From contig JAJRWX010000033.1 in assembly GCA_024276605.1 (NCBI GenBank), positions 19,541 to 83,540 on the forward strand: a stretch of 64,000 bases of DNA, read 5' to 3'. A model generated the notes under the pieces. The model had not been told where the DNA came from and ran no database searches. It saw only the letters and a program-made list of their open reading frames with translations. Positions 6,980 through 62,721 of this stretch are shown here, in pieces (position 1 is the first letter of the stretch; each line of letters opens with the position of its first letter). This DNA comes from Planctomycetota bacterium (lineage in GTDB: Bacteria > Planctomycetota > Phycisphaerae > UBA1845). The position numbers and the translations under genes are program-made.

Positions 6980-7048
6980 GACGGAGTTGCAGCATTGCAC
7001 CAGGTCTAAGTTTGTTCGGCAATGCCATAAGACAGATGGAGGGAAACG

Positions 7049-45132: not shown

Positions 45133-45248
45133 CTCCTCCTATGGCCGGCTTTCACGGCAACACTGATCCATTGGCCACCGTCATCGTAACCGATGGTTGT
45201 CATCTCCATGGCCTCGTCATACTGAAAGTATACGTATTCATTATTCAT
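45129..45248 (-). CDS. Small 39-aa ORF overlapping both neighbours
   Basis: [39 protein letters not shown]. Its start overlaps the upstream stop, and its TGA overlaps the next ATG (ATGA). Confidence 0.45.
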
Positions 45249-46077
45249 CAACCCAAACGGCAGGTTCCGTACCAACCGTCGCATCAGGTGAGCATTCTGC
45301 CATCACATGATCCATCGCGAACAGTGCCGCACCCAAGGCACCACAGAAATGCGCATCCGGGCTGATGTTAAGCGATTGTCCCAGCTTGGCTTCCAAGGCT
45401 CGAATCATGCCGATATTTCGGGCTACACCACCGGTAAATGTCATCTCCGGGTCAAGCCCTACGCGGCGTACCAAACCAATCGTCCGTGTAGCGATGGCTT
45501 CGTGTACACCAGCTAAGATATCTTCCACTTTCTTCTTTTGGGCAAGGTGGCTTAAAATGTCCGACTCAACGAACACCGTACACACGCTGGTCAGACGAAT
45601 CGGCTTGGTTCCTCTCAGAGAAATCTCACCAATTTCATCCAGCGTTAATCCAAGCACATCTGCCGCACCGGCAAGAAACCGCCCCGTTCCAGCTGCGCAT
45701 TTGTCGTTCATGCAAAAGTCGAGTACGTCGCCGTCGGAGCTGACTTTAATCGCCTTGGTGTCCTGTCCACCCATGTCAATCACGGTACGTGTGCCAGGAA
45801 AGAGCAGGTGTGCGCCACGGGCGTGGCAGGATATTTCCGTCACCTGCGTGTCACCCGCTTCGATTTTGTAACGACCGTAACCCGTACCCACGACAAACTT
45901 AATATCATCGCGCTGTATGCCAGCCTTGGCGACGAGTTCATCCAGCACACGTTGCCCCGCCCGCTTTACATTGGCGCCGGTATCGATCAAGAACCGCTCC
46001 ACAATACCACGAGAGCTGTCAATGACCACTGCCTTGGCCTGGGTACTTCCAACATCTATTCCGGCTGCATATTGCAT
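45241..46077 (-). CDS. bzdQ: Benzoyl-CoA reductase ATPase subunit (BzdQ/BcrA-like; ASKHA activase)
   Basis: [47 protein letters not shown]. Confidence 0.82.
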
Positions 46078-47390
46078 TATGTAGAACCTTTCATACCAGC
46101 GCCGCGTTTTCCCATCTCTACCTGTTCTCCTTTACGTAACCGTTTGTATTGGAGCGACTCAAAGAACGCATCGATGCGGTTCTTCATTTGGGCTTCGGCG
46201 TAATACCTTGGATCTTCGAGGTCGGACTCAACCATAAGCGTTGGCACGCCAAGCTCTTTGGTGAAATACTCCCGCATATCTCCCTGCCCCGCAGAAAAAA
46301 GTCGGCAGCTCTTTATACTGTGAATGACCAGCGCGTCGGCATTCCAGTCATCGACGTATGTTTTTATTTGTTTGTATCGCTCAATCATGGATCGATTGCA
46401 GAGATTGTGCACAATCATTTGCTCGGCGATGCTTTCGAGTGGATTGTCGGGGTCGTGCCGGAAACCAAATTCCCAAGTACCTCCGACGGTAGAATATGTA
46501 CTTTGTACAGCTACCGCCCCCCACGCCTCAAACAAGTTACGAAAGTTTCGATAGTACGGATAAGGCGGCGGACCTTCGAACACGACGCGAAATCGCTCCT
46601 CGTCCAAGACACCCATACCGTCAGCAATCATGTTTTCATATTCTTTGATCGTAGCGTCGAAGAAATCGGCGGCTTCTTTCGTTCCACGCAGGGCATTGAT
46701 AGGCCCCATCATGTTGATGCTGTCAAAATATGCATCAAACGGGGCAGGATGATTTTTACATAATTCCTTGGCTCGACTCCAACCCGCTTCGGCACGGACG
46801 GAATATTTCAGAATCTCTCTTAACTTGTCAATGTCAAACTTCTTGCCGGTCAGCTCTTCACACTTGGTGATAAGCTCCTTGAGTTGACATATGACATAGG
46901 CTACGTCTTCTTTAGTTGGCGCTTCTTCACGGAGGAAGGGAATGTCCAGCATGACCATCGGAACATTCAACATTTGAGAACAATGCTCAAACCACTTGAT
47001 GTACACGTTGCAACCGACAAAGTTGCACACAATCATCGATGGTTTTGGTATAGTGCCGTTCTCACCGACCCCACCACACATCGTAAACCCGATATCCGCC
47101 TTCACATAGGCACAGTTGTCAGATGCATAGCCAATCTCTTCGCTCTTGATAATATAAGGCAATGAGTTTTTGCGTATGGCAAGTTGCAGTGCATTGATCT
47201 CGGGAAACACCGGTAATATGTCGAAGCATCGCATGATCTCGACACAATTTCCGCTAATCATGAGATAGGCGGAAGGTACGGGATTTGTTGTGGCAGCCTT
47301 CAACTGCGACATCCAACCCGTCATGATATCGCGCGATAACTTATGTATTTTCCCGCGATAATCTTTTTCATCTGATACCGTCGTTCGCAT
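46077..47390 (-). CDS. bzdO: Benzoyl-CoA reductase subunit B (BzdO/BcrB-like)
   Basis: [64 protein letters not shown]. Confidence 0.82.
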
Positions 47391-47523
47391 TGTGCTTACT
47401 CCAAACCCTTCACCTTGTTAGACAACGTCGGCGGCGTGCCCGCCCAAACTCACCATTGTCAACAAAGCCTGGATTGATGTTGTCTCACTTTATTCCCATT
47501 CTTCTCTCGGCTATCCCGAATCA

Positions 47524-48678
47524 CTAATCAAACAACATAGATTCCGCGAACGTTTCTATCTCCGTGCGCGTACTTTCGAACGTCCACATTTTCTCTTCAA
47601 ATTCTATTTTTAGATGAGGCACATCTGCTTCTTCCAATTTTTGGCGAAACAACACATAGTCCAACAGGGCCGGCTCGCAGAATTTTGCCGGTGCAAAGAG
47701 GACGGCCTCAGCGCCGGAACGCTTCATCCGATCAATCAGCCCGTCAGTTCGCGGTTTTTTATAGTCATGTCGAACCGACGTATAGACACTGCTCGCTAAG
47801 TATGCGTTGGACAGCGCTGCCAGCGGATCGCCATTTGAAACCACATCATCATCGAAAAGGCGCCAACCAATGATCATATCGTCGTCTTGCACCAGACAAC
47901 CGCTGGCTTCGATGACCTCGACCAATCCGATCGGCGGCTGTTCGCAAAAAGCACCCTCCACAACTACCCGCACCCCGTCTCGCGGTTTGACATCCGAAGC
48001 CTCAACAGCATCGCAAAGCTCACGCAGCATGGGCACAAAATCCTCCGGCATCATGCGCGTACTTGCCTGCACCACAGCGTACAAATCCGCAGCGGCAATC
48101 GACGAAGGATGAGCTTTTCGATGAGCATAGAGACGTCGGGTGTGGTGGCGCACTTCATTGTAAAGTTTAAGGCTGTCTCGAATCGCCTCGTCGGGAATAG
48201 GTCGATTCAATTGTTTCGATAGATTGGTACGAAAGCGTTCAAATTCCGATCGCGCGTAGTTAGCCGATTCCGCGCTGTACATGTTCTGCGGCATATGAAG
48301 ATATTCGACGTAAAGCTCGGGGCAATTACGCTTGACCAAACTCGAAAGATTGCGCGCGACATCGCAAATGGAACTGAACACGACCCCCTCGAATTCCTTC
48401 ATTTCATCACGAAGAAACAGCTCAAGGGTGCTCTTGGCTATGGAACAAATGAAAGACTGAAACCGCGCATCCGCGTGAGACAACTCAATCTTGTCTCCCG
48501 CACCGAACATCCCAACCGGAAGCAGCCCGGCTGCGTGGATAATCTCTACCGGCGCATAAACCGGAAAAACCCCAAAACCCCCTACATCGGGATGTTTCTC
48601 CCTCGCCAGTGCAAGAATCTGAGCCGGTAGTAGGTCGAGTAGATCACGACATTCCTGAATGATTTTTTCGCCAGTCAC
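47524..48678 (-). CDS. bzdN: Benzoyl-CoA reductase subunit C (BzdN/BcrC-like)
   Basis: PVYAPVEIIHAAG, FQSFICSI, SICDVARNL, GAFCEQPP, KFCEPALLD, ETFAES. GTG start with GGAGG RBS. Confidence 0.85.
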   Translation of the reverse strand: MTGEKIIQECRDLLDLLPAQILALAREKHPDVGGFGVFPVYAPVEIIHAAGLLPVGMFGAGDKIELSHADARFQSFICSIAKSTLELFLRDEMKEFEGVVFSSICDVARNLSSLVKRNCPELYVEYLHMPQNMYSAESANYARSEFERFRTNLSKQLNRPIPDEAIRDSLKLYNEVRHHTRRLYAHRKAHPSSIAAADLYAVVQASTRMMPEDFVPMLRELCDAVEASDVKPRDGVRVVVEGAFCEQPPIGLVEVIEASGCLVQDDDMIIGWRLFDDDVVSNGDPLAALSNAYLASSVYTSVRHDYKKPRTDGLIDRMKRSGAEAVLFAPAKFCEPALLDYVLFRQKLEEADVPHLKIEFEEKMWTFESTRTEIETFAESMLFD

Positions 48679-48719
48679 ACAAACCTCCAATACGATGTCG
48701 ATGCACTCACCGAATTCGT

Positions 48720-51212
48720 TTACGAATTCGCCGAGGCTCCATCCAACTCTTGTTCTCCAGAAAATTCCGCCATCCCGTTCTCGGACGGGTAACGCCAACC
48801 CGGTAGCTCAACTTGATCGCACGAGTAATTCATGGCGGGAGGACGCTTCCCTCGATCGAGCAGTGCAAGCAACCCAACACTGATGAACGGATTCTTTTTC
48901 GGGTTGAAAATTTCCCCGGTTTCAGTAGCTAATGCCGCATCGTTTGCACCGCGCGCCAGTTCTTTTTTGAACAGTGCCCTTGAATAAGGCGCATCCTTAG
49001 CCATCTGTCGGGCGCGCTCGAATCCACGCTGCAACGCTTCCAACTCGTTATCAAAAACGCCGTTACAAAGCCCAACCTGAAAAGCACGATCAGCGGTAAG
49101 CCCCTGATCGAACAATTCGAAGATCACTGAGTCACCCATACCCAACCGTTTCAACTCACCAGCCGCCCCAAACCCGGGCAAAATCGCATAATCCAATTCC
49201 GGTTGGTTGTAGTTACACTTCAGGCCCCACTGCGATTGTCTCTTGAGCGAATCAAACGTGAAGCCAAACGACCGAATGTCGTAGCGTAGATCAAGAAAGT
49301 ATGTGAACTCCGCCCCTCCGCCCCATTTTTCACCAAAGACGCCGATACTGGCTACCGGACTCTGCTGAATCAACCGGAATAGCCCAACACCGTTACGACT
49401 TGACGCCGCCGCTTCGGATTCACTCAATGGCGCATAACCCTTGTCGCGCTCAAACCAACCTCGATTGAATTCACGGGCATCGGCACCGAACATTCTCAAA
49501 CCGGTGCCGGCTGCGGTAAACAACACGGCACCGCACGCGCCTTTCGCATGAAGCTTTAGAACACGGCTATAAGCATGACCAAGCTGATCGATGACTGCCT
49601 TGTTAAAGACATTACCCCGCAACGGACTGTTAAAAATAATGCTTGCGACGCGCCCCTTAGTCGATGGTTCGCCAAATTTAAGATCGAGATAACAACCTCG
49701 GTAATCGCCCGAATCGAGACAAAGCTCGGCGACCGGCGTTCGATAATACTTGCCGTATCCAAGTAAGCGCGAAAGATTTCTTCGCTTCATTTCCAAAAGT
49801 AAGCAGGGACGGTTGATGCGCGGTCCGGTCGTTCCGTCTACATCCAACATGTCAACCATATAGGGATCGTCGGCGTTTTCATCTTGGGCACGTCGAACCA
49901 ATTGGATGAGTCCATCAATGGTTAAGCTGCCAATGAGCGCGTCGATCAACTCGATCAATCCCACTTTGAACCTTAACCCGGCCCGCGTAGCTATGTTAAT
50001 CTGCCCCGGCGTGGCAATTCGATCTTGAATCATATCGAGCGCATACAAACACAATGGCAAGGCATACCGACGAAAAGCTCGACCACCGGCGTCACTCGCA
50101 CAGGCCACATGAACCAACGACGCTGTGCTTTTAATCTTTCCGGCTAGACGATCCTTTTCCGTCGCTTCGTAATAGGACCAGTAATCCTTGCGTGAAATTT
50201 CCCCCATGGGCACATAATCACCCGACTTGGGATCGTACACAGCCGAAGGCTTGGACTTACTCCAAGCATAAAAACCCCGACGCTTGGATGAATTGATTCC
50301 CGTATCCCCACTAATCTCCAGCCGTGCTATCCATTCCGGATAGTAGGCACCATCGCGGTTGTATAGGCCACGTAACCGATCAGTGGCAGGAAGCGCTTCC
50401 CCGAGATGACGAGACGATTCCGTGTACGGCATGTGCCCGGTTTGATCGAGCACGACAAACGGGTTAGCCGTGAACAAATCCCAAAGACCGCCCCGCTCGA
50501 CGATATCTTGCGGACCATCCACATCCCACGAGACGATAGCCCCCATAGCCTGAAACAAGGGATCAGTAATGTAACCGTGATGATCGACCGGCAACGAGAT
50601 GACTGTTTTCTCTAGAATCTGATCCGCAAAAACCGTGCCAATCTTAAATGTCTCGTTCGATGCGTACTTTCCCTTCATGACATCAATCAGGCGGTTGGAT
50701 TCGAACGGAAAGTAACCGTGTACGGTAAGAAATTTCTCGCGAAAGGCCCCGGATGCAAATAAAGCGGCGAGTTCTTCCGTGGTGTGTGAGGATGTATTCG
50801 AAAATATCGCGGCGATGCTAACCGGATCAACCGCTTCTTCGATCAATCGAAAGATGCTCGCTTTTATTTCACTTCGTTCCGTAGCTACTTCCCATATAAT
50901 ATCGGCACGGCTGAGGGCATCATATTCCTGCGTATAGGTTACGCGCGAGGACAGGCGTTCTCGATCCTCTTCTCGTAAACGAAACGCCGACACATCTCGC
51001 TTCCATAAACCTTCAAATCGATCGCGCGCCGCTTGAAGTGCTTCTTGCTTGACATCCAGCAACAATATCTCGTAAGGTGACTTTCGCAGTAAATCAATGA
51101 CGATTCCCTGCCCCATCGTACCGGCGCCGATGATAGCCACACATTGTATCTCATTGACACGCGAGACTGCAGCTTCCAGAGACTTGTCGCCGTATGCAAA
51201 TGCGCAATTCAT
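48720..51212 (-). CDS. 3-hydroxyacyl-CoA dehydrogenase / crotonase-like fusion (divergent, dehydrogenase first)
   Basis: IIGAGTMGQG, WEVATE..IK, SNTSS; C-terminal crotonase fold (GNVFN, GADARE, WGGGAE, QPE..ILPGFGA). Confidence 0.8.
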   Translation of the reverse strand: MNCAFAYGDKSLEAAVSRVNEIQCVAIIGAGTMGQGIVIDLLRKSPYEILLLDVKQEALQAARDRFEGLWKRDVSAFRLREEDRERLSSRVTYTQEYDALSRADIIWEVATERSEIKASIFRLIEEAVDPVSIAAIFSNTSSHTTEELAALFASGAFREKFLTVHGYFPFESNRLIDVMKGKYASNETFKIGTVFADQILEKTVISLPVDHHGYITDPLFQAMGAIVSWDVDGPQDIVERGGLWDLFTANPFVVLDQTGHMPYTESSRHLGEALPATDRLRGLYNRDGAYYPEWIARLEISGDTGINSSKRRGFYAWSKSKPSAVYDPKSGDYVPMGEISRKDYWSYYEATEKDRLAGKIKSTASLVHVACASDAGGRAFRRYALPLCLYALDMIQDRIATPGQINIATRAGLRFKVGLIELIDALIGSLTIDGLIQLVRRAQDENADDPYMVDMLDVDGTTGPRINRPCLLLEMKRRNLSRLLGYGKYYRTPVAELCLDSGDYRGCYLDLKFGEPSTKGRVASIIFNSPLRGNVFNKAVIDQLGHAYSRVLKLHAKGACGAVLFTAAGTGLRMFGADAREFNRGWFERDKGYAPLSESEAAASSRNGVGLFRLIQQSPVASIGVFGEKWGGGAEFTYFLDLRYDIRSFGFTFDSLKRQSQWGLKCNYNQPELDYAILPGFGAAGELKRLGMGDSVIFELFDQGLTADRAFQVGLCNGVFDNELEALQRGFERARQMAKDAPYSRALFKKELARGANDAALATETGEIFNPKKNPFISVGLLALLDRGKRPPAMNYSCDQVELPGWRYPSENGMAEFSGEQELDGASANS

Positions 51213-51240
51213 GACAATCTTCCGTTACCAAAGATAGAAT

Positions 51241-52488
51241 TCATTTCGTTTCCGTATTTCGTATAACAATGGCTACGCCCTGCCCGCCGCCAATGCATGC
51301 GGAGCAAATACCATACGCCACACTACGTCGCTTCATTTCGTACATCATGTCAACGATGATCCGAACACCCGTCGCGGCCAGGGGATGACCAATCGCAATG
51401 GCCCCACCGTTCACATTCACATTTTCGCGCGGCAAACCCAGCTCTTTTTCAACGCCCAGGTATTGAGCGGCAAAGGCCTCATTGATTTCCCATAGTCCGA
51501 CATCTTGTTGACTGATCCCGGCGCGTTGGAGCGCTAGATTGATCGAAGGCACCGGCCCGCGGCCCATCACCCGAGGGTCAACACCGCAAACACCATAACT
51601 CACTACCTCGAACTGTGTTGACCACCCGTTTCGCTCTGCTTCTGCTCGATCAGCCAGAATCACCGCGCCAGCGCCGTCACTTAGTTCGCTCGCATTCCCG
51701 GCTGAGACTAATCCGTTCGGTGTCATGCCTGGTATCTTGGCAAGCACTTCGAGGGAAGTGTTTCGAACACACTCATCACGAGCTAGATGCACCGGTTCAC
51801 CGCGCAAGTCCGTCGCATCGATCGCCAACATACCGCAAAGGGCGTCACCACCGTTGAAATGGCTGGATCGGTAAGCGTCCCGTGCGCGCTGGTGGGATTG
51901 TACGGCAAACTCATCGCATGCATTGCGAGTGACGCCGACCTGACTCCCATATTCATCAGCCGTTAACATCATGCTAGTATGTGCCAGATCATGATTCAGC
52001 CCGGCAAGCAGCGTATCTTCTTTTTTGCCACCTTCTTGAAATTCCCAAAAACTGGAGGCACGACGAGGCGAGCGAATGACCTGGGGCGTTCGTGTCATGT
52101 TCTCGGCACCAAAACACAAGGCCGTCTTGGCATCATCCATTTCCGATGGCACAGCGATTTGCTGCATCGCACTGACAACCGTTTGCAGTCCCGAACCGCA
52201 AATGCGTTGCACCATGAGCGCCGGAACGTCCACGTTCAAGTGACAGCGTAATGCCACATTTCTGGGAAAATAAATATCCTGCGATGCCGGTGCCGTGGTT
52301 TGATACACATTGGCACCAATAGCCGTATCTATTTGTTCGCGAGGTACACCGCTTCGTTTGATCGCCTCTTCACACGCGAAGAAGGCCAAATCTTCAGGCG
52401 CAAAATTAGACAGCGTACCACACTTTACGCCAATCGGCGTTCGTGCCCCATCCACAATCACGATATCGGAATGCTCGTTACGTGCCAC
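51241..52488 (-). CDS. Acetyl-CoA acyltransferase (thiolase)
   Basis: GARTPIG, RICGSG, GNAS..SDGA, EINEAFA, NGGAIAIGHP, CIGGGQG. Confidence 0.95.
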   Translation of the reverse strand: MARNEHSDIVIVDGARTPIGVKCGTLSNFAPEDLAFFACEEAIKRSGVPREQIDTAIGANVYQTTAPASQDIYFPRNVALRCHLNVDVPALMVQRICGSGLQTVVSAMQQIAVPSEMDDAKTALCFGAENMTRTPQVIRSPRRASSFWEFQEGGKKEDTLLAGLNHDLAHTSMMLTADEYGSQVGVTRNACDEFAVQSHQRARDAYRSSHFNGGDALCGMLAIDATDLRGEPVHLARDECVRNTSLEVLAKIPGMTPNGLVSAGNASELSDGAGAVILADRAEAERNGWSTQFEVVSYGVCGVDPRVMGRGPVPSINLALQRAGISQQDVGLWEINEAFAAQYLGVEKELGLPRENVNVNGGAIAIGHPLAATGVRIIVDMMYEMKRRSVAYGICSACIGGGQGVAIVIRNTETK

Positions 52489-52491
52489 AAC

Positions 52492-55400
52492 TCATACCCC
52501 TTGCAACTGTTGTTTACGAATGACAATGACATCTTCGCCCGGTTCATTGGAAAACATATCATCAAGGAGATGTTTATGATTGGCGATGACGGTCTTGCGC
52601 ACCATCTTGCCGGAAGACGTAAGTTCTCCGTTGACTAGCGTCGGTGTTCGGTCCGTTAAAACAAAACGCTGAATCCGATGGAATTTTACTTCGATCAACT
52701 CATTCAATCGTTCGACTTCTTGAGTGAGTAAAGCACGGACGCCGGGATGTGTAAGAAGTTCTTTCTGTTCGACTCGTTGTTCTTTAGCCCACGCAGCAAG
52801 CTCGACCATATCCGGATAGATCAGGGCCGATACGAAATCCTCTCCACTACCGAGTACGATGGCCTGTGCTATATAACGCGATTCATTCACCAGTATCGTT
52901 TCGATACGCTGGGGATGAACTTTCTCGCCGGTGGTCAGTTTGAAGGCACCGTCTTTCCTTCCGAATATGCGCAGGCCTTTCTTCGTAAACTCTCCAAGGT
53001 CGCCGGTTCGAAACCAACCATCAGCACTGAGCACATGGCTCGTCGCTTCCTCATCATCGAGATAGCCCCCCATCACATTGGGGCCTTTGACGAGAATTTC
53101 CTGATCGTCGTTGATCCGAATGGAGACGCCGGGAATGGGATACCCCACATACCCGCTATTCCATTGGCCATCGAGAGTCGTGAGTGTGACACTCGGTGAG
53201 GTTTCAGTCAAACCCCAACCCTCCAAGACGGGGATCTGATGCTCGCTGTATATACGTGCTACCGGCGCGGGCAGCGAAGCACCGGCAGTGAATACAAAAC
53301 GAAGGCGACCACCAAAGATCACGCGCTCGATCGATGTATCCGTCCGACAACGTGATAGAAGCATGTCATGAACACGGGGAACGCTGAAAAATAGCGTGGG
53401 ATCAAACGCCCCCCAATTGGCAATCATACGATCGATATCACGCCCGCGCGAGTCGTCTAAGCACAACTCGCAGCCATGGTACAATGCGAGTGTTCGTTCA
53501 AAAATACCCCCGAAACTATGATGCCAGGGCAAATAACTGAATAGGACATCCTTCTCGGACACATCCCAAATCAACTCAACGGCCTTTTGTTGAGAAATGA
53601 TGTTGCGATGGGAAAGGCGTACACCCTTGGGAGGCCCGGTCGTACCAGAGGTATACATGATTAAGCACAGGTCGTCCGATTGAACGGCGCTGATTCGCTG
53701 GTCCAGCGCCTCCTGACTTGCCCCCCCCTGAATTAGTAAATCGTCGAAGTTTTTCGCGCCCCAAGCTTCGCAGTCAGCATCGAAATCCATGGAAAAATAT
53801 TGTTGGATCCACGGGTGACGATCGGCTTCGATTTTCTCAAGCTGATGTTTTCCAGAGACGATCACAAATTTTGGCTTGGCGTGGCCCAATACGTACGCAA
53901 TGGAACCCGCCGGATACCCGGCAAATACCGGCACAGTCACCGCACCGATGGCCATGACGGCTAAGTCCGTCATGAACATCTCCGGTCTATTTTCGGAAAT
54001 CATACTGATGCGATCACCGGGACGTATACCCATGTCTATCAGACGCCGAGCAATGTTATGGACGTTTTGGGTAAATTGAGACCAAGTGATCGAAGATTCA
54101 TCTTCACCTGCTCGCGTGCGAATGAACACTTTTTCACCAAAGCGCTCTGCGCGACTGGTTAATACTTGCCCAAGTGATGATTCATAATCACCCAGCGGGA
54201 TCTTGTTGGCATGAACTTCCGCGATCCGCTGAATGCCGATTTCCTCATCCAGTCCCTGTGGGGTGGTCTGACAATACGCCAAACAAGTATCGCGTAGGAG
54301 TTCTTTCGTAAGCACAAAACGCTCTTCAGGTGTTTTGGGAGAGAAATCCACGCTAACCGGATCAAGTCCCGCCCGGCGACGCACCAGATCAGACGCTACG
54401 AAATCAACAATGTTGGTAGCCAGTTCTTTAATATGCGAGCAACCAACACGACCGCCGACACGTCGCACAATCTCCAACAACACACCACGCTCAATGCGTA
54501 AACCCACCAGCCGCTCCGCCACAGCTTCAACCTCACGACAAACAGGGAACGGAACGCGAATCATCTTCAAACGACTGCTGACAATTTGCTCATCCGGTAA
54601 ATATATCTTGACTTCGAGTTTGATCAGATGCTCGTTGTCGAGCAACGTACCAACCACCACCACGTTGTCTGAGCCGGCGTCAAACAACTCAATCGAAATA
54701 TTTCTCTGGGCTGAAAGTTCCATACCTGTACCTCCCGACTGGTCGCCATGCTCGGCGTTATCTCGAAATCGAATCGCCCGCGCCATCGACGCCTTAATAT
54801 CGTATTTGAGCGATTTGAATAAATCGGCCTCTTCCTGCAAACCTGCCCGTGCGGCGTACTGCGAAAGTGGCGACAGAATCCATTCTTCATTTGAAAAAAG
54901 CTCTACCCGGTCCAAGCCATTCACCAACGCATCACGAAACGTCTTAAGCGAACTGGTCATGTGCCCAGCGAAAGACATGATCGTCGCTCGATGCTTGGCC
55001 CAAATGTCCTCATAACACGCATCTTGCGGATAGGCACCAGATGATAGACCGACGTTAAACACCGCCCGAGTTACACGTTCGACGAATGCCGCTTTGGTCT
55101 CATCTTGGCAAAGATCACCCATGCGCAGATCGTTCAGTTCCCCACTGGGTTCAACCGTATGAATAAGACCACCCACGTTCAACACGATCGAAATCATGGC
55201 TTTGTCAAATTCAACCCGCGTTCCGGGAACGCCTTTGGTATGATGAAACGGATAACGATGGGCGTTGAGAATCGATTCGATGCGAGCCTGCTCGGCTTCA
55301 CCACCGCCGGCAAACACCAACGACCCCTTGCGCTCCAATATGTAAACCGTCTCTTTTCCCATACCACGACGACCGCCCGCCTGGAGTGAAATACCCCGCA

Positions 55401-55899
55401 CGATCCGATCAATGATCGCTTGGACCATAGCGTCATCCACACCAACCAACCGCCCCATCAACACAGACTCGTGAATCTGCTCTTCAAAATTAGAAACGGT
55501 ATGCTCCATCAGGATACCATTAGGTAGCACCAACATGATGGGCACGCGTCGTTGAATATCCTCGATCGACTGGAGGCGTTTCCGCTCACAGAGGTTTTCC
55601 AAGAACCTGGTAAGCTCCGCAGTAAACAAAATAAGCTGGTTCGGATTACAACAAACGAACAATAGCTCCGGCATGCGATCAAGCGCCTCAGCTTCCAGAA
55701 GATTAGCCAAAATCCTACCTTCTAGCGAAGCCCATCGCTGATTTTCACCTTCCAGTAGATTAAGAGAACCACTCTCCTTTAACGGCTGTGTGATGCCATC
55801 ACCACCACGACCGATTAAATACTCCGCGTCGGTATGCACGAAGAAAGCCACCCCCAGCGCACCGGGAGGATGAATGCCAAGTTCACCGGTGCGTAACAT
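52492..55899 (-). CDS. Three-domain fusion: ketopantoate-reductase-like + DUF2889-like + AMP-dependent acyl-CoA ligase
   Basis: N-terminal GALG, LPNGI, FDKA..N, TSSL motifs. Middle D.EH..PFPVC..LVGLRI..GGRVGCSHI. C-terminal YTSGTTGPPKG, GWGLTE, GWFRTGDLG. Confidence 0.8.
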   Translation of the reverse strand: MLRTGELGIHPPGALGVAFFVHTDAEYLIGRGGDGITQPLKESGSLNLLEGENQRWASLEGRILANLLEAEALDRMPELLFVCCNPNQLILFTAELTRFLENLCERKRLQSIEDIQRRVPIMLVLPNGILMEHTVSNFEEQIHESVLMGRLVGVDDAMVQAIIDRIVRGISLQAGGRRGMGKETVYILERKGSLVFAGGGEAEQARIESILNAHRYPFHHTKGVPGTRVEFDKAMISIVLNVGGLIHTVEPSGELNDLRMGDLCQDETKAAFVERVTRAVFNVGLSSGAYPQDACYEDIWAKHRATIMSFAGHMTSSLKTFRDALVNGLDRVELFSNEEWILSPLSQYAARAGLQEEADLFKSLKYDIKASMARAIRFRDNAEHGDQSGGTGMELSAQRNISIELFDAGSDNVVVVGTLLDNEHLIKLEVKIYLPDEQIVSSRLKMIRVPFPVCREVEAVAERLVGLRIERGVLLEIVRRVGGRVGCSHIKELATNIVDFVASDLVRRRAGLDPVSVDFSPKTPEERFVLTKELLRDTCLAYCQTTPQGLDEEIGIQRIAEVHANKIPLGDYESSLGQVLTSRAERFGEKVFIRTRAGEDESSITWSQFTQNVHNIARRLIDMGIRPGDRISMISENRPEMFMTDLAVMAIGAVTVPVFAGYPAGSIAYVLGHAKPKFVIVSGKHQLEKIEADRHPWIQQYFSMDFDADCEAWGAKNFDDLLIQGGASQEALDQRISAVQSDDLCLIMYTSGTTGPPKGVRLSHRNIISQQKAVELIWDVSEKDVLFSYLPWHHSFGGIFERTLALYHGCELCLDDSRGRDIDRMIANWGAFDPTLFFSVPRVHDMLLSRCRTDTSIERVIFGGRLRFVFTAGASLPAPVARIYSEHQIPVLEGWGLTETSPSVTLTTLDGQWNSGYVGYPIPGVSIRINDDQEILVKGPNVMGGYLDDEEATSHVLSADGWFRTGDLGEFTKKGLRIFGRKDGAFKLTTGEKVHPQRIETILVNESRYIAQAIVLGSGEDFVSALIYPDMVELAAWAKEQRVEQKELLTHPGVRALLTQEVERLNELIEVKFHRIQRFVLTDRTPTLVNGELTSSGKMVRKTVIANHKHLLDDMFSNEPGEDVIVIRKQQLQGV

Positions 55900-56701
55900 G
55901 ACTGGTCGATCTCCTCTGAGTATCTTCTTGACTAGCAGCTAGCAATGCTGCGCCATAAGCACCGGCATGTTGCGGCATGGGTGGCAGCCACACTTCGGTT
56001 TCAAGCATTTCTTCTAGAGCCTTCACCATCGCTCGACAATGCGCGGCTACACCGCCGGTGACGGCCACCGCATCGCTACGCGCCGACAGCATCTCACTAA
56101 TCCGCGCGGCGATGGACCGGAACAACCCCATCGATATATCCTCCCGCCGCTGACCTGCTTTAATTCGCTCGATCACTTCCGTTCCGGCAAACACGGTACA
56201 ATAACTGTTCAGTACGGCTTGTTCCGATGATGCCATCGCCAGCTCATCCAAGGCTGATAGTGACAACCCCAGCTTAAATGCCGTCGATTCAAGAAAAGTG
56301 CCCGTACCCGCCGCACACTTCGCGTTCATGCGGTAATCAACCATGCGCCCCTCTTCACTTAGGCGGATGACTTTCGTATCCTGACCGCCAATATCAATAA
56401 TGGTGCGCACCTGGGGATACCATTCTCTAGCGCCGCGAGCATGACATGTAATTTCCGTCACCTGACGATCCGCCATTTTCACATGCTCACGACCATAACC
56501 TGTAGCTACGCACCGCGTAATATCTTCCAGGGTGCCTTCAGCCTGTCTCAGGGCACGACGAATGGACATGTCCACGGCATCCGCATAATCGAACCCGGAA
56601 TGGTTCACATGGTGCCCGACCAATGTCGCCGTCTCATCAATGATGACACATTTGGTTGCCGAGGAACCGACATCAACACCTACATAGAGCGCTTCGCTCA
56701 T
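55883..56701 (-). CDS. 2-hydroxyacyl-CoA dehydratase activase (HgdC/BadFG family)
   Basis: GVDVGSSATK, ATGYGR, TEITCHARG, DIGGQDTK, KCAAGTG, SYCTVFA. Confidence 0.92.
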   Translation of the reverse strand: MSEALYVGVDVGSSATKCVIIDETATLVGHHVNHSGFDYADAVDMSIRRALRQAEGTLEDITRCVATGYGREHVKMADRQVTEITCHARGAREWYPQVRTIIDIGGQDTKVIRLSEEGRMVDYRMNAKCAAGTGTFLESTAFKLGLSLSALDELAMASSEQAVLNSYCTVFAGTEVIERIKAGQRREDISMGLFRSIAARISEMLSARSDAVAVTGGVAAHCRAMVKALEEMLETEVWLPPMPQHAGAYGAALLAASQEDTQRRSTSHVTHR

Positions 56702-57939
56702 CGTTGCAGCTCCTCGATTTGCTCTATAAAGGCCTCAATGTTCGTCATGGTCTGTGCGGTGGAAAAAAATCGTACATCGCTGAGATCACCGTCGATCACA
56801 AGAACAGGGATGGATAGCTCTTCGCGCAGTCGTTCACTCATGCCAAAACGAGAATTTGTATTGTTGGGGCATGTTCGAGCGTTGTGAAAAATCACACCGT
56901 CAATAGCGAACTTATCGAACATCTCGATTAGAAACCGTTGCTTAACCGGCTCGTCTCGGTTGATGAAAATCTCAATGCTTGTACGCGCCATCCACTCAAG
57001 CGGATCGTCGCCGTCAAACTCATCGAAGGCCCAAGAGTTACAGTATGTACTGGCGGCCACGATCGCGCGCAGATCGTAGAATTTTTCAGATAGTTCTCGC
57101 AGTTTCGGCCAAATCGGCATCCCTTCCCAATAGATACGATGAAGTTCATCCGGCACGGCGCCTGTGCCTTTTTCTACTCGGCGGTTCAGTTCATTCAACA
57201 GTGTTTCATAGTAATCGATCGCCTTTTGCGTCCCGCGCATGAGAATCACGGGGGCCATGTGTATGACACCATCGAAGAACGATAGCGCAGCCGGGTGAGC
57301 CGTTGCCGTATCCAACACCTGTCGCCATAAAGTGCTGGCCCGGCTCGATAACGTAACAACTTCACGAAGACGATCGTAGTCCAGTTTTAGCGAAAATTGC
57401 TGCTCAATCCGTTCGATCAATTGCTCAAGCTGCCCGCGCACAAAGGCCACCTGCTCGGGCGTCACTTCACCCAGATGGGTCGGGGGACACACGCCCATGA
57501 CGGGAGCGCCGTCACGCTGACCGTAAAAACTCCACCAATCCTGCACCTCCCGACATTGGTTGGTGCTATAGACCAGCAAATCAGGCTTGGGCGGACCGGC
57601 AATACCGAATACATCCTGTAGCGGACTATGCCCCATTAGTGTCGAACCTATGTCGCTATTCATGTACGAACAGGACTCAGCTCCGTATCCAATGCTGACT
57701 GCCCGTGGGATGAACTCATGACTGAGCCGACGCGCGCCAAGAAGCGCGCCATGATTTTCCGGAAAATAGACCTCAAAGCCCATAGCCGAGAGAATTTCGC
57801 ACGGACCGACCGACGTACACCAAGCCACCTTCCGCTGTGAATCTCGCGCAGCGGCATCGAGGCTTAAGAATTGGTCGCGCATGAGTTCGCTCAGTTCGCG
57901 ACGCGACTCAATCTCAACTCGTTTGATCGTCGTAGCCAT
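56698..57939 (-). CDS. 2-hydroxyacyl-CoA dehydratase-family Fe-S subunit (HgdA/FldB-like)
   Basis: VAWCTS, FPENHGA, CSY..SDIG, NQC, HNARTC, IDGDL.D.R..TNIEAF. Confidence 0.88.
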   Translation of the reverse strand: MATTIKRVEIESRRELSELMRDQFLSLDAAARDSQRKVAWCTSVGPCEILSAMGFEVYFPENHGALLGARRLSHEFIPRAVSIGYGAESCSYMNSDIGSTLMGHSPLQDVFGIAGPPKPDLLVYSTNQCREVQDWWSFYGQRDGAPVMGVCPPTHLGEVTPEQVAFVRGQLEQLIERIEQQFSLKLDYDRLREVVTLSSRASTLWRQVLDTATAHPAALSFFDGVIHMAPVILMRGTQKAIDYYETLLNELNRRVEKGTGAVPDELHRIYWEGMPIWPKLRELSEKFYDLRAIVAASTYCNSWAFDEFDGDDPLEWMARTSIEIFINRDEPVKQRFLIEMFDKFAIDGVIFHNARTCPNNTNSRFGMSERLREELSIPVLVIDGDLSDVRFFSTAQTMTNIEAFIEQIEELQR

Positions 57940-57951
57940 ACGTCCTCTTCC

Positions 57952-58977
57952 TTACGGCACAACTATGGACCGAAGCGACACGCCCTCTTTCATCACGGCA
58001 AAGGCTTGTTCTAATTCGTCCAGTGCAAATCGATGCGTCACTTGACGCTTTACGTCAATCACACCGGACTCCACCATCCGAATCAACGGTTTGTAATCGA
58101 GCGGACGACACCCGAGTGAACCAACCACTTCGATCTCTTTGAACATAATTTTTCCGGCCACGATCGATATCTTTTCATGCGTATAACCAACCACGCACAA
58201 TCGACCGCCCATACGTACGCACTCGAATGCCTCTTCAATGGTTCGCGGATTCCCGATGACTTCCATGGCGATATCCGCCCCACCACCCGTCAACTTTTTT
58301 ACCTCTTTGCTTACGCGCTCAACCTTGGAAGCGTTGATGGTGTGTACGGCGCCGTATTCCCGCGCCCATTCGAGCTTTTTCTCATTCATATCGACAGCGA
58401 TAACGCAGCCGCCGCTCGCCGTGGCTAACTGCACGGCGTTAATACCCACGCCGCCGCATCCAAAAACAACCACCGTATCACCGGGTCTCACCTTGGCGCG
58501 ATTCTTGACCGCGTGATAGGGCGTGGAGATCGCGTCGGCGATAATCGACGCTTCCTGGAGAGGGATGGACTCCGGAAGATGAAGAACATCTTTCGCCGGT
58601 ACAGCTACATACTCAGCGTAAGCCCCGTCAAAGTGATTCCCCAGCATGGTCATGCTGCTGCAAATGTTCTCTCGCCCCATACGACAGAACATACATTTTC
58701 CGCACGTGAGCACCGCCGGGATCAAGACGCGTTGCCCTTTGGCAAAGTCTTCAACTCGATCTCCAACCTGATCCACGATTCCCGACGCCTCATGCCCGAG
58801 CACAATCGGAGGCTTCTTAAACGTGGGCACGCCGTGCTCGATATAATGCAAATCCGTATGACAGACCCCGCACGCGGCCACTTTCACGAGCATGTCATCG
58901 GGGCCGATCTTGGGGATCGGTATATCTTCGACGCTCAATCCAGTGTCGCTACCGTGAAATACTACTGCTTTCATCAC
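57952..58977 (-). CDS. had: Zn-dependent dehydrogenase, probable 6-hydroxycyclohex-1-ene-1-carbonyl-CoA dehydrogenase
   Basis: CGVCHTDLHY..GVPT..PIVLGHE, IPAV..CGKC..C..C, ADAISTPY; operon context with dch, oah and the reductase. Confidence 0.8.
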   Translation of the reverse strand: MMKAVVFHGSDTGLSVEDIPIPKIGPDDMLVKVAACGVCHTDLHYIEHGVPTFKKPPIVLGHEASGIVDQVGDRVEDFAKGQRVLIPAVLTCGKCMFCRMGRENICSSMTMLGNHFDGAYAEYVAVPAKDVLHLPESIPLQEASIIADAISTPYHAVKNRAKVRPGDTVVVFGCGGVGINAVQLATASGGCVIAVDMNEKKLEWAREYGAVHTINASKVERVSKEVKKLTGGGADIAMEVIGNPRTIEEAFECVRMGGRLCVVGYTHEKISIVAGKIMFKEIEVVGSLGCRPLDYKPLIRMVESGVIDVKRQVTHRFALDELEQAFAVMKEGVSLRSIVVP

Positions 58978-59017
58978 TAACTATCCTCTTGTGCCATTGA
59001 TTGATTGCCACCTGTGC

Positions 59018-59788
59018 CTACGCATGTTGCCAGGCCGGCTTTCGCTTCTCCAAAAACGCTGCGATGCCCTCATGCGCATCCGCGATAGCCATTAGCTCGC
59101 CCAGATAAAGGGCTTCGGTTTTATCCAACTGATTGAGCATCTGTTCACGTACGGCCATACACGTGGCACGTTTCGCCATGCGCACAATCGGACACGACAG
59201 TTTCTTGATACCCTCCAGATAATCATGCACGCTTTGATCAAACGTATCGGTTGGGTAAACGGCGTTGACCATGCCAATGCGATGAGCTTCCTTGGCATCG
59301 ATGGTTTGCCCCAATGCGTTGAACTCAATCGCTTTCTTGATCCCTATCTGCATAGGCAACACACAAGCCGCCACCGGTGGAAATACACCCACCTGCACCT
59401 CCGGCTGACCGAACTTGGCCCGTTCGGATGCCAATACGATGTCACAATAACAGGCTAATTCACATCCCCCACCCAGCGCCGCACCTTGAACAGCTGCGAT
59501 GGTCAGAGCATCGGTCGAAGCCAGCTTTCTGAAGATGCCGTGGAACTGATGAATCATGTCGCCTACTTGATCGGCGGAGTGGTCGCTTACATCCACACCT
59601 GCGCTAAACACCTTTCCGCTTGCACCGATCACAATGGCTGATAGTTCATCTCCCGAAAGAATAGATTCCAGCAGCGCGTTGAACTCTGCCATCATGGGAT
59701 TATGCAACACGTTGAGCGGTTCACGGTTCATCGTGATCCGTGCAATACGTTCGTCGATGTTCAGATCAAAATAACGGTAATCACTCAT
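59018..59788 (-). CDS. dch: Enoyl-CoA hydratase, probable cyclohexa-1,5-diene-1-carbonyl-CoA hydratase
   Basis: PLNVL, FSAGVDVSDH, LGGGCELA, GQPEVQVGVFPP, EALYLGELM..DAHEGIAAF. Start at MSDYRYF. Confidence 0.82.
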   Translation of the reverse strand: MSDYRYFDLNIDERIARITMNREPLNVLHNPMMAEFNALLESILSGDELSAIVIGASGKVFSAGVDVSDHSADQVGDMIHQFHGIFRKLASTDALTIAAVQGAALGGGCELACYCDIVLASERAKFGQPEVQVGVFPPVAACVLPMQIGIKKAIEFNALGQTIDAKEAHRIGMVNAVYPTDTFDQSVHDYLEGIKKLSCPIVRMAKRATCMAVREQMLNQLDKTEALYLGELMAIADAHEGIAAFLEKRKPAWQHA

Positions 59789-59801
59789 AGTCACGTAACC
59801 C

Positions 59802-60542
59802 TCAGATGTACTGTCCACCATCCACGCGAAGCACTTCGCCGGTGATGAAACGAGCGCGGTCGCTACACAAAAAAACCACCGATTCACCAACATCCTCAAC
59901 CGTGCCGATTCGACCGAGCAGAATCTCGCCGACCGCATCGCGCTTAGCATCCTCCGACATGGTCTTGACGATATCCGTTTCGATAAAACCCGGCGCGACG
60001 GCATTGACGGTGATGTTGAATCGGGCCACTTCCTTCGCTAACGTCTTGGTCAGTCCAATCACACCCGCCTTGGCTGCGGCATAATTAGCCTGTCCAAACT
60101 TACCCCGCATCCCGTTGATGCTAGCCATGTTGACGATGGCCCCGCCGCCGGACTGACGCAGATAGGGAATCGTAGCACGACACACGTTAAACACGCCGGT
60201 TAAATTGACATCGATAACATCTTGCCACATATCATCAGTCATTTTCCAGCTTACTTGATCGCGTACGATGCCGGCATTATTGACGATAACATCAAGCCCA
60301 TCCCAACGACCAGCGACCGATTCGAGCGCATCGCCTACAGCACGAGCATCGCGCACATCGCCAACGACTTGGCAGCATTGACGATCAAGTGATTCGATTT
60401 GACGAACGAAGTCTGAGCTGCCGGAGAAATCCTCCTGATCGAAGATACAGACATCATATCCATCACGCGCGAGCATCTGTACAATGCACCGGCCTATGCC
60501 TCGACCGCCGCCGGTTACAAACGCTCGTCGCCTGTCTGACAT
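59802..60542 (-). CDS. SDR oxidoreductase (FabG/PhaB-like)
   Basis: TGGGRGIG, NNAG, YAAAK, NAVAPG. Confidence 0.92.
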   Translation of the reverse strand: MSDRRRAFVTGGGRGIGRCIVQMLARDGYDVCIFDQEDFSGSSDFVRQIESLDRQCCQVVGDVRDARAVGDALESVAGRWDGLDVIVNNAGIVRDQVSWKMTDDMWQDVIDVNLTGVFNVCRATIPYLRQSGGGAIVNMASINGMRGKFGQANYAAAKAGVIGLTKTLAKEVARFNITVNAVAPGFIETDIVKTMSEDAKRDAVGEILLGRIGTVEDVGESVVFLCSDRARFITGEVLRVDGGQYI

Positions 60543-60560
60543 GCCCGGTTTCCTCTCCCG

Positions 60561-61697
60561 CTACGTCGCCACCGCCGCTTTCAATGCCGCTCCACACTTT
60601 CCGCAGAACTCGAAGTTGCGTGGAATCCCCTTCGCACCGCACTCCTGACAAGTTTGTGCGTAAGGCCCCCACAAAAACTCACTCGATCCGTCCGGATCAG
60701 CCGCCCGCTCACGCATACCGACGTAGTCCGCCTTACGTTTTTCAACGAAGGCCGTCATTCCTTCGTGAGGCTCAAGACTGGTATAATGCACGGATAACCA
60801 ATCACGCGCATGCCCCACCGTCGAATGCCAAGCCGCATCCTTCCAGAAGTTGACCTGTGTCTTGGTGTAACGCGTGCATTCTGCAAATTTGTGAACGATC
60901 TGATCACAAAGATCGGACATCACTTCGTCCATACGTGAAAAGTCTATGGAGAATCCGTCCTGTTTCTTCTGCGCTTTCTTGATCTGCTCCGGCGTCGCAC
61001 GCATGTCAAAAGGTTGCTCCCATGGATCGGTATTCCAATCTGCCAGATATGTTCGACCGTTCGTGAACTGAGTGACGAACGCGCCGCCTGAATCCTTTAC
61101 AGTAGGCACAACGACATTGACCAACCCCATCGAAAGCGAAGTAAATGGACCGTATCGTTGATTGAGAAACAAGATACCGCGTGCCTTACGATCGCCGACG
61201 TGCAAGGGAAGCCATTGGGTCGAACCACCACAGGCTACCGAACCAACGCCGGTACCCACTTGCGCGATAAATGCGTGTTCACCCATCACGGAAAGATCGC
61301 AGGCCAACTGGCTTTCGTTCCCTCCGCCGACAGCCATCCCGTTCAAACGAGCAATGACAGGTTTCGAGCAATTCGTGATCGACTCAATATACGCCTTGAA
61401 GCAAGACATGTACTTCCAATAGTCGCGCGGCTTTTGCGTGTAGGACTCCTGGTATTCCTTCACATCTCCGCCCGTGCAAAAAGCACGGTCGCCGGTGCCG
61501 GTAAACACAACGACAGCAATGCGATCATCCCAGGAAGCATCCTGTAAAGCCGCGGCAAGCTCCGTGAGCGCAGGTGTGCTGTAGGCGTTGTAGTTGTGGG
61601 GACGGTCGATCGCTATGTGTGCGACCCACCCCTTCTTCTCGTAGCGAACCTCGTGCAAATCCAGCGACTCAGGCCGCTTCTGCGGGAACATGGACAT
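60561..61697 (-). CDS. oah: Crotonase-family ring hydrolase, probable 6-oxocyclohex-1-ene-1-carbonyl-CoA hydrolase, with C-terminal Zn ribbon
   Basis: YNAYST, AFCTGGDVKEY, KPVIARLNGMAVGGG, GS..GGST, KFAEC..TK..W; tail CQECG..FCGKCG. Confidence 0.8.
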   Translation of the reverse strand: MSMFPQKRPESLDLHEVRYEKKGWVAHIAIDRPHNYNAYSTPALTELAAALQDASWDDRIAVVVFTGTGDRAFCTGGDVKEYQESYTQKPRDYWKYMSCFKAYIESITNCSKPVIARLNGMAVGGGNESQLACDLSVMGEHAFIAQVGTGVGSVACGGSTQWLPLHVGDRKARGILFLNQRYGPFTSLSMGLVNVVVPTVKDSGGAFVTQFTNGRTYLADWNTDPWEQPFDMRATPEQIKKAQKKQDGFSIDFSRMDEVMSDLCDQIVHKFAECTRYTKTQVNFWKDAAWHSTVGHARDWLSVHYTSLEPHEGMTAFVEKRKADYVGMRERAADPDGSSEFLWGPYAQTCQECGAKGIPRNFEFCGKCGAALKAAVAT

Positions 61698-61969: not shown

Positions 61970-62638
61970 ATGAGCGTTTCCGAACAATCGTTCGAAGCCG
62001 AGGCTACCCCGTCGCCGCCCGCCGTAACTTTCGAGGGACGCGGCACTTACGACGAAAGGCTAAATCAAATCCTCGCCGCAGCAACAGCCACATTCGCCCG
62101 GCTGGGCTATGAAAAAGCGTCCATGAGAGAGGTGGCCAAGGCCGCAGGGGTGAGCTTGGCTGGTTTGTACCACTATTTTGATGGCAAAGAAAAAATCCTA
62201 TTTTTGATCCAATTCCGTGCCTTCGGTTCTCTACAGAATAATCTAAGGGAAAAACTTCACGGCATTGATGATCCTGAATTGCAATTGCGAGCCATGATTC
62301 GCGCCCATCTCACCTACTTTGCGGCGAACATGGAGGCACTGAAAGTCTGTTCGCACGAATTGGATTCCTTAACCGGTTCCGCCTACAGCGAAACGCGACA
62401 AATTCGTCATGCCTACTACGAAATCACACGCGGCATCATTGAACGATTGATCCATACACACAACACGAACGGCAACATTGACTTACATGTCGCAACAATG
62501 GCACTCTTCGGCACGCTTAACTGGCTATATCGTTGGTATGACCCTCAACGAGGTCCGGCCGTCACAACCGTGGCTAACCAGATTGCCGATCAGTGTTTGC
62601 ACGGTTTGATTGGAACGACGAAAACCGGGGACCAATAA
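61970..62638 (+). CDS. TetR/AcrR-family regulator (KstR2/PaaR-like, CoA-ester sensing type)
   Basis: ILAAA..FARLGYEKASMREVAKAAGVSLAGLYHYF..KE; FGTLNWLYRWY. Confidence 0.93.
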   Translation: MSVSEQSFEAEATPSPPAVTFEGRGTYDERLNQILAAATATFARLGYEKASMREVAKAAGVSLAGLYHYFDGKEKILFLIQFRAFGSLQNNLREKLHGIDDPELQLRAMIRAHLTYFAANMEALKVCSHELDSLTGSAYSETRQIRHAYYEITRGIIERLIHTHNTNGNIDLHVATMALFGTLNWLYRWYDPQRGPAVTTVANQIADQCLHGLIGTTKTGDQ

Positions 62639-62721
62639 CTGTCACAGGTAGCTATTAACATAAATACGAATGTAACGACGGTATTGTTCGTAGTCGAACC
62701 CGTCGTTTGAGAGAATCGAAT

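Follow-up and report, generated by a model that had tools for sequence, protein, structure and literature searches.

A three-domain CoA ligase of uncultured Phycisphaerae with a ketopantoate-reductase-like fold, a DUF2889 domain and a predicted nested start

The 64,000-nucleotide (nt) window analysed here (positions 19,541 to 83,540 of contig JAJRWX010000033.1, assembly GCA_024276605.1; all coordinates below are those of the window unless a locus is named) belongs to a bacterium of the Phycisphaerae, phylum Planctomycetota, and encodes on its minus strand a fusion protein of 1135 amino acids (aa) among genes that resemble those of benzoyl-CoA breakdown. We read this protein, with a probability of about 0.6, as the CoA ligase of the pathway, joined to a probably active reductase of the ketopantoate reductase (KPR) fold and to a domain with a Cys3His2 site, and made as two proteoforms. 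The setting would be a conserved operon of uncultured Phycisphaerae/Planctomycetota for the anaerobic breakdown of aromatic acids by the benzoyl-CoA route. A reductase gene would have been joined to a DUF2889 or DUF2889-ligase gene, whose start codon and Shine-Dalgarno (SD) site would have been retained after the fusion, under selection; two proteins would probably be made from the gene, one of 1135 aa and a DUF2889-ligase form of 743 aa.

A protein of three parts had been proposed in a first-pass annotation of this DNA, and the Pfam layout and the model of the N-terminal domain (N-domain) agree with that proposal (Table 1). Translation of the gene meets no internal stop codon. Public records name the protein 'AMP-binding protein' or 'long-chain acyl-CoA synthetase', and no paper on this three-domain protein was found in the literature searched. 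Among the sequencing runs listed, none of RNA contains the fusion gene, a blank that weighs neither way, and small DNA shares of it occur only in one marine study.

The nested start and the age of the fusion

The same annotation had pointed to an SD sequence at good spacing before an internal methionine codon, Met393, and such a sequence is indeed read on the minus strand at the border of the second domain. Our comparison of 31 orthologs shows that Met393 is invariant and that an SD core (GGAG, GAGG or longer) lies at about –15 to –7 of it in every ortholog. The residues encoded by this core vary, Gly and Arg interchanging. By eye, the core was counted to end 7–9 nt before the ATG in four orthologs. 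We scanned 1118 codon positions of the 31 orthologs for GGAG or GAGG in the interval from –20 to –5 of each codon, and codons 392–395, which represent one site, are the only ones to carry the motif in all of them; averaged over all positions the fraction is 0.11, and the runner-up site has the motif in 23 of 28. At the other nine conserved Met columns the motif is present in 0–12 of about 30 orthologs. The 16S rRNA of the host ends in CACCTCCTTTCT, its 3' end carrying the anti-SD CCTCC, and across the host genome an SD motif precedes 21% of 2671 longest-open-reading-frame starts versus 4.6% of 14604 internal in-frame ATGs, a 4.6-fold difference.

Features of the mRNA and of the encoded protein point in the same direction. 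In 29 of 31 orthologs, folding of the 40-nt mRNA segment around Met393 is less stable than the average over the gene; codons 395–402 make up 8 of the 12 least structured among 1090 positions, and Lys stands at +2 after Met393 in 20 of 31. A stand-alone DUF2889 gene of 151 aa in another genome of the phylum (L032) has a Met1 that aligns to Met393, at 37% identity. Since Met393 is invariant, its SD site is both conserved and unique, the mRNA is weakly structured and the position matches the start of a free DUF2889 gene, we predict from conservation that a nested start giving the 743-aa form is likely. The idea of two isoforms, first put forward from this one gene, thus gains support.

It is also conceivable that a single product is made and that the internal ATG with its SD-like motif is a vestige of the fusion event, or that it makes ribosomes pause and so helps the domains to fold stepwise. 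Met393 may be kept for structural reasons, and linkers rich in Gly and Arg are encoded with GGA and AGG, codons that give SD-like strings. It should be noted, too, that the orthologs are kin, so that 31 of 31 are not 31 independent events and all counts of this kind overstate independence; together with the possible role in pausing, this weighs against a second proteoform. A relic, however, should decay over 57–82% identity, and yet this motif alone among the scanned positions is fully conserved as the residues beneath it change. Other conserved Met codons are devoid of the motif, and the weakly structured first codons and the frequent Lys are what is seen at true starts. We therefore regard a single product as possible, though unlikely, and retain the nested start.

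In-frame internal starts that give two proteoforms are described for bacteria in the accessible parts of two reports (bioRxiv 10.1101/520783; PMC13515050). Our case resembles such genes in having an in-frame ATG with an SD of its own, inside the gene and at a domain border, but differs in being predicted from conservation in orthologs and in that the start would have been retained from a once-separate gene. The Met393 site is thus a conservation-backed candidate for two proteoforms in a phylum whose translation signals are little studied.

How old is the fusion? The first-pass annotation had considered a recent event, and this we reject, because the same architecture is shared by all the clusters listed and all the species loci. 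A whole-protein search gave 312 clusters at E ≤ 0.001; the best 120 of the 312 are all 1120–1173 aa long, show 62–82% identity and have all three Pfam domains, and the named sources among these 120 are Planctomycetota/Phycisphaerae metagenome genomes. With one genome taken per GTDB species, the fusion was found in 30 loci, at full length in 27 and cut by contig ends in 3. Of 301 genomes sampled from the phylum, 4 have DUF2889 (three frames of about 1134–1164 aa and one stand-alone). From its sequence distribution the fusion is old and patchily distributed. Two loci labelled Acidobacteriota (L011 and L029) carry it at 64–66% identity of the N-domain, which could reflect mis-binning or gene transfer. 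Their context is reduced, with neither a Had-like gene nor a downstream thiolase or reductase, which counts against our preferred reading.

Three domains of the fusion protein

Judged by its sequence, the C-terminal domain is an intact AMP-forming carboxylate-CoA ligase, with Pfam matches to AMP-binding at aa 582–947 (261 bits, cut-off 29.9, E 2e–77) and to AMP-binding_C_3 at aa 987–1118. The core motifs of the ANL superfamily are a P-loop [ST]SG[ST]TGxPKG, a hinge GRxxD and a C-terminal catalytic Lys; here we read YTSGTTGPPKG, GRKDG and the lysine of a C-terminal SGK, and T750–K758, R981, D983 and K1098 are invariant in the 26 full-length orthologs compared. The protein shares these motifs and the two Pfam families with ANL acyl-CoA synthetases of the FadD/PRK12582 type, but has in addition 560 N-terminal residues in two domains that the listed matches in the PDB leave uncovered; its best PDB sequence match (122 bits) falls within the ligase part. 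It is more difficult to assign a substrate. The best NCBIfam model, PRK12582, gives 273 bits against a cut-off of 777, and no NCBIfam model scores the domain above its cut-off. With 116.5 bits for TIGR02262 (cut-off 375.25), the domain falls outside the benzoate-CoA ligase family by model; three other ligase genes of the host genome outscore the fusion for this family, and no gene of that genome, which is 96% complete, exceeds the cut-off. Since the domain lies outside the benzoate-CoA ligase family and below every NCBIfam cut-off, its assignment to aromatic acids is drawn from gene context, and these scores tell against it. In the pathway, this domain would most likely activate the entering acid.

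The N-domain had been taken as KPR-like, and at the level of fold the model bears this out. The AlphaFold2 model, built from an alignment of 54 family members, has a mean predicted local distance difference test score (pLDDT) of 95.9 and a predicted template-modelling score of 0.92, and Foldseek returns ketopantoate reductases and D-mandelate dehydrogenases at E about 1e–12. In VIA-align, the Rossmann plus helical C-domain fold matches Bacillus subtilis PanE (3ego) with Z 26.3 and a root-mean-square deviation of 2.8 Å, covering 286 of the 291 residues of 3ego, and D-mandelate dehydrogenase (5x20) with Z 25.9; deviations of the top matches are 2.8–3.6 Å over 286–298 residues. Opine dehydrogenases follow at Z 18–21, 5 Z units under the KPR-type matches, and glycerol-3-phosphate dehydrogenases at about 16. 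As a reference for residues we used PanE of Escherichia coli, the host genome being without a clear PanE (best ApbA match 31.8 bits). In an hhalign comparison with it, K233 of the N-domain pairs with Lys176, S316 with Ser244, E338 with Glu256 and N241 with Asn184, in a weak alignment of 3% probability and E 0.015, and N127 corresponds by motif to Asn98. The roles of Lys176, Glu256, Asn98 and Ser244 in PanE are described in the part of PMC3478992 available to us. All five residues of the N-domain are invariant in the full-length orthologs, and the catalytic equivalents K240, N134, N244, N248, S322 and E344 (numbering of alignment A3) are invariant in 20 stand-alone relatives. Because the KPR fold is found together with the catalytic Lys, Glu, Asn and Ser, the modelled domain is predicted to be an active NAD(P)H-type carbonyl reductase, whose substrate is probably a keto acid, 2-oxo or other, related to the one that the ligase uses.

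Other properties of the domain speak against such an activity. The dinucleotide motif is PPGALG, where E. coli PanE has GCGALG, so that the first Gly of GxGxxG is replaced by Pro (P11 in at least 90% of the 54 family sequences); the position of KPR Lys72 is taken by Asn85; KPR Arg31 is present in this protein, yet not invariant among orthologs. The 392 aa give zero matches in Pfam, ApbA and ApbA_C included, even at E ≤ 10, and the hhalign probability is as low as stated above. For these reasons cofactor binding is only putative. The same changes could mean that the N-domain is not an enzyme, but a nucleotide- or CoA-sensing module tuning the ligase, with DUF2889 as a structural linker. Besides the family-wide Pro and the loss of Lys72, the structure of an archaeal KPR in complex with coenzyme A (5ayv) is among the structural matches, and relatives of the domain, described below, are fused to CoA-ligase domains or adjoin a small protein with ligand-sensing ACT domains. 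Invariance of the catalytic Lys, Glu, Asn and Ser and of many further polar residues, in the orthologs as in the stand-alone relatives, is nevertheless the pattern of an active enzyme, and the invariant Cys3His2 set speaks against a mere linker. We hold a sensing role to be quite improbable and keep to the reductase.

Compared with PanE/ApbA and D-mandelate dehydrogenase, the N-domain has in common the two-domain fold (Z 26 over about 290 residues) and the equivalents of Lys176, Glu256, Asn98, Ser244 and Asn184, but it carries PxGxxG, Asn for Lys72 and about 90 extra residues, and has no Pfam ApbA match. It thus marks a Pfam-less, unnamed branch of the KPR fold. PDB searches with the sequence and with a profile found nothing meaningful, and a scan of 1.84 billion cluster representatives (50% identity) gave 97 clusters at E ≤ 0.001. 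Many of these relatives are stand-alone proteins of ~390 aa with 25–32% identity, few lie within large proteins, and none of 29 relatives scanned has a Pfam family on its N-domain part. Of 39 loci examined with stand-alone relatives (L041–L116; PxGALG motif, no Pfam family), 26 encode a tandem-ACT protein of ~136 aa immediately 5' of the relative and in the same orientation, for example L047:5587–5997 and 6001–7149. Distant relatives P0202, P0203 and P0207 (~1060 aa) are fused to NDP-forming CoA-ligase domains, and others of the same set (P0161, P0162) to a radical SAM domain and to adenylate-kinase-like domains.

Between reductase fold and ligase, Pfam finds DUF2889 (PF11136) at aa 424–499, with 46.7 bits in the whole protein and 50.7 bits for the domain alone (cut-off 25), over positions 45–119 of the 123 of the profile. 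Metal-binding Cys/His motifs had been suspected in this part. PFPVC (C454), GCSH (C487, H489) and the first Cys of TC..YC (C539) are invariant in the full-length orthologs, but the second Cys of the last motif (C543) is not conserved; H424 is invariant as well, so the set is H424, C454, C487, H489 and C539. Across eight DUF2889 sequences, which reach down to 19% identity and include four from betaproteobacteria, R7, D29, H32, P58, C62, G74, G80, R88, C95, H97 and C147 are invariant (Met393 counted as 1), and the stand-alone DUF2889 proteins compared, at 19–37% identity, have the same Cys/His set. The AlphaFold2 model (mean pLDDT 77, core >85) is a four-stranded sheet packed with helices. DUF2889 is thus probably an independent alpha+beta unit with a putative metal- or cluster-binding Cys3His2 site.

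Structure comparison is less favourable to this assignment: Foldseek with the model finds zero matches at E ≤ 0.001, and the best VIA-align score is a middling Z of 8.3, to the C-domain of LplA. RnfG/NqrC follow at Z 7–7.8 and IscU at 7.0 (1q48) and 6.5 (4eb5), all within the Z range called common. The scaffold fold of IscU/NifU/SufE was considered for the domain, and IscU is on a par here with LplA and RnfG/NqrC. An immunoglobulin-like fold, given at lowest confidence in the accessible part of the supplement to a de-DUFing paper, was not adopted; our model is the sheet with helices described above. A word-based search for homologs of the domain returned only 7 fragments, all of the same fusion, and an ESM Atlas search gave no usable match. 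DUF2889 is listed in the accessible parts of the literature searched, where a functional treatment of it was not found.

Neighbouring genes offer a hint as to function. All 4 annotated betaproteobacterial DUF2889 contexts examined are CoA-thioester clusters, with CoA transferases, crotonases, acyl-CoA dehydrogenases, AMP-binding proteins and carboxylate-binding proteins as neighbours; a fifth record carries no annotation. The fusion thus gives DUF2889 a biochemical setting, CoA-thioester metabolism with an invariant Cys3His2 site. Free-standing DUF2889 genes are located on betaproteobacterial plasmids or chromids (L118, L119, L121, L122). In Azoarcus sp. KH32C the DUF2889 gene is near two genes of the 2-hydroxyacyl-CoA-dehydratase family (HGD type) and an activase.

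The operon and the possible route

On the minus strand, the genes follow each other in the order Oah-like, SDR, Dch-like, Had-like, HGD-D, activase, fusion, thiolase, dehydrogenase/crotonase and BcrC-, BcrB-, BcrA- and BcrD-like (Table 1), and this order is syntenic across the related loci. A thiolase is directly 3' of the fusion in 22 of the 30 loci, and genes of the benzoyl-CoA reductase type lie downstream in 18, most others being cut by contig ends. In most loci, the fusion is linked to genes for the benzoyl-CoA pathway and for beta-oxidation. In one locus, the downstream genes score 476 bits for BzdN (cut-off 454) and 693 bits for BzdO (cut-off 449); by its sequence, it carries a true Bzd-type benzoyl-CoA reductase. 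The Had-, Dch- and Oah-like enzymes of the window match dearomat_had (253 bits), dienoyl_CoA_hyt (171 bits) and dearomat_oah (210 bits), all below the cut-offs. Known clusters for benzoyl-CoA comprise bcrCBAD, dch, had and oah in Thauera and bzdNOPQ in Azoarcus. The present operon resembles them in its BcrCBAD-like, class I benzoyl-CoA reductase (with true BzdN/BzdO at other loci), in its Dch-, Had- and Oah-like enzymes and in a molybdenum enzyme like 4-hydroxybenzoyl-CoA reductase. It differs from them in that the copies of the window are below equivalog cut-offs, the host is a member of the Planctomycetota and the three-domain fusion takes the place of a benzoate-CoA ligase of 520 aa. A further difficulty is an in-frame TAA at 44974–44976 within the BcrD-like gene (44314–45138, minus strand), a position at which E, Q, A, S or R stands in the orthologs; either this gene is a pseudogene or the stop is an error of sequencing or assembly. 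No study tying Phycisphaerae to benzoyl-CoA breakdown was found in the literature searched. The operon suggests that uncultured Phycisphaerae of sediment and subsurface can degrade aromatics anaerobically, by way of an unusual entry enzyme.

Table 1. Coordinates of the fusion gene, its parts and its neighbours in the window
Feature	Position	Strand	Remarks
Whole fusion gene	52492..55899	–	1135 aa + stop, ATG start; listed open reading frame, frame kept in 27 of 30 related loci
N-domain, KPR/ApbA fold, aa 1–392	54724..55899	–	AlphaFold2 model, Foldseek, VIA-align, hhalign, invariant residues
DUF2889 domain + tail, aa 393–560	54220..54723	–	Pfam PF11136, AlphaFold2 model, invariant residues
AMP-forming acyl-CoA synthetase domain, aa 561–1135	52495..54219	–	Pfam AMP-binding + AMP-binding_C_3, core motifs
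SD-like GGGAGGT	54730..54736	–	6-nt spacer (ACAGGT) to internal ATG; SD core in 31/31 orthologs
Internal in-frame ATG, Met393	54721..54723	–	Proposed nested start of 743-aa DUF2889-ligase form
Activase-type ATPase (BcrAD_BadFG)	55883..56701	–	Last 17 nt shared with start of fusion gene; found in 18 of the 30 loci
Single HGD-D subunit	56698..57939	–	Best match HadB alpha-like, below every cut-off
Had-like zinc alcohol dehydrogenase, Dch-like crotonase, FabG-like SDR, Oah-like crotonase with zinc-ribbon tail	57952..61697	–	NCBIfam, synteny
Thiolase, 3-hydroxyacyl-CoA dehydrogenase/crotonase fusion, BcrC-, BcrB-, BcrA-, BcrD-like subunits	44314..52488	–	Pfam, NCBIfam, synteny
Divergent TetR regulator + FAD subunit of molybdenum hydroxylase	61970..63603	+	Pfam/NCBIfam; large subunit just outside the window

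Upstream of the fusion lie the activase and a single HGD-D subunit, and a role for them was part of the first reading of this DNA, a funnel from keto acid to enoyl-CoA. In this funnel, the N-domain would reduce an arylpyruvate to an aryllactate, the ligase would form aryllactyl-CoA, HGD-D with its activase would dehydrate this to cinnamoyl-CoA, and the downstream hydratase/dehydrogenase plus thiolase would shorten the side chain to give (4-hydroxy)benzoyl-CoA, which the reductases would take up. The genes for activase, fusion, thiolase and dehydrogenase/crotonase are contiguous; the nearest structures of the N-domain include D-mandelate dehydrogenase, a 2-oxo-acid reductase with aromatic substrates; the HGD-D subunit scores best against the alpha subunit of 2-hydroxyisocaproyl-CoA dehydratase (192 bits versus 144 for BcrB); and an enzyme like 4-hydroxybenzoyl-CoA reductase would suit substrates derived from tyrosine. 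In the available part of PMC3478992, a ketoisovalerate reductase of the KPR family supplies a 2-hydroxy acid to the adenylation domain of the synthetase in beauvericin and enniatin synthesis, which is a precedent for such a coupling. That system likewise pairs a KPR-family 2-oxo-acid reductase with an ANL-type adenylating enzyme, but its partners are separate proteins of a fungal biosynthesis in which a carrier protein receives the acyl group, whereas here one bacterial polypeptide is encoded in a catabolic operon, and it is we who infer the coupling.

Against the funnel stands, in the first place, the single HGD-D subunit upstream. Known 2-hydroxyacyl-CoA dehydratases need two HGD-D subunits. 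HGD-D and activase occur together in 14 loci, the activase alone is visible in 4 cut loci, and 12 of the 30 lack the pair, their fusion being retained at 62–69% identity; since these loci have the fusion and not the pair, the fusion travels with the benzoyl-CoA pathway and not with the dehydratase-like genes. The downstream HGD-D genes of the Bzd-type locus mentioned above, which is one of those without the pair, belong to a reductase and not to a dehydratase. Thiolase and dehydrogenase are also needed for the breakdown of 3-hydroxypimelyl-CoA and so are not specific to shortening of a side chain, and all scores are below the family cut-offs. The funnel could operate in the 18 loci with pair genes, but its alpha plus beta HGD-D with activator is not co-inherited with the fusion, and we consider it doubtful as a general explanation. 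Without a second HGD-D partner, HGD-D and activase may form a homodimeric ATP-driven reductase or dehydratase.

A bolder version would make the fusion a self-contained channeling enzyme: an aromatic 2-oxo acid would be reduced, the 2-hydroxy acid ligated to CoA without a CoA transferase and the product passed to an ATP-driven dehydratase of the HGD type built from a single subunit. DUF2889 would then be a new domain for hand-over by a metal or cluster, and the nested start would fix how much of the ligase is made with the reductase and how much without it. If true, aromatic amino acids would reach benzoyl-CoA in Planctomycetota by a route not yet described; we regard this reading as a long shot.

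On the other strand, the molybdenum hydroxylase is closest in its large subunit to the alpha subunit of 4-hydroxybenzoyl-CoA reductase (TIGR03194, 892.5 bits, cut-off 994.55). Its 2Fe-2S and Mo subunits are fused into 979 aa, and 3' of it are maturation genes, namely a HemN-like radical SAM gene, XdhC and MobA; this stretch (L117, 1248–8324, plus strand) begins in the window at 62707. The tail of the Oah-like crotonase (60561–61697, minus strand) resembles a zinc ribbon, with weak DZR and Zn_Ribbon matches at aa 348–372. SDR and Dch-like crotonase share ~200 nt in their longest open reading frames (59802–60004, minus strand), and as the profile match of the latter starts at residue 84, its true start is probably later than listed.

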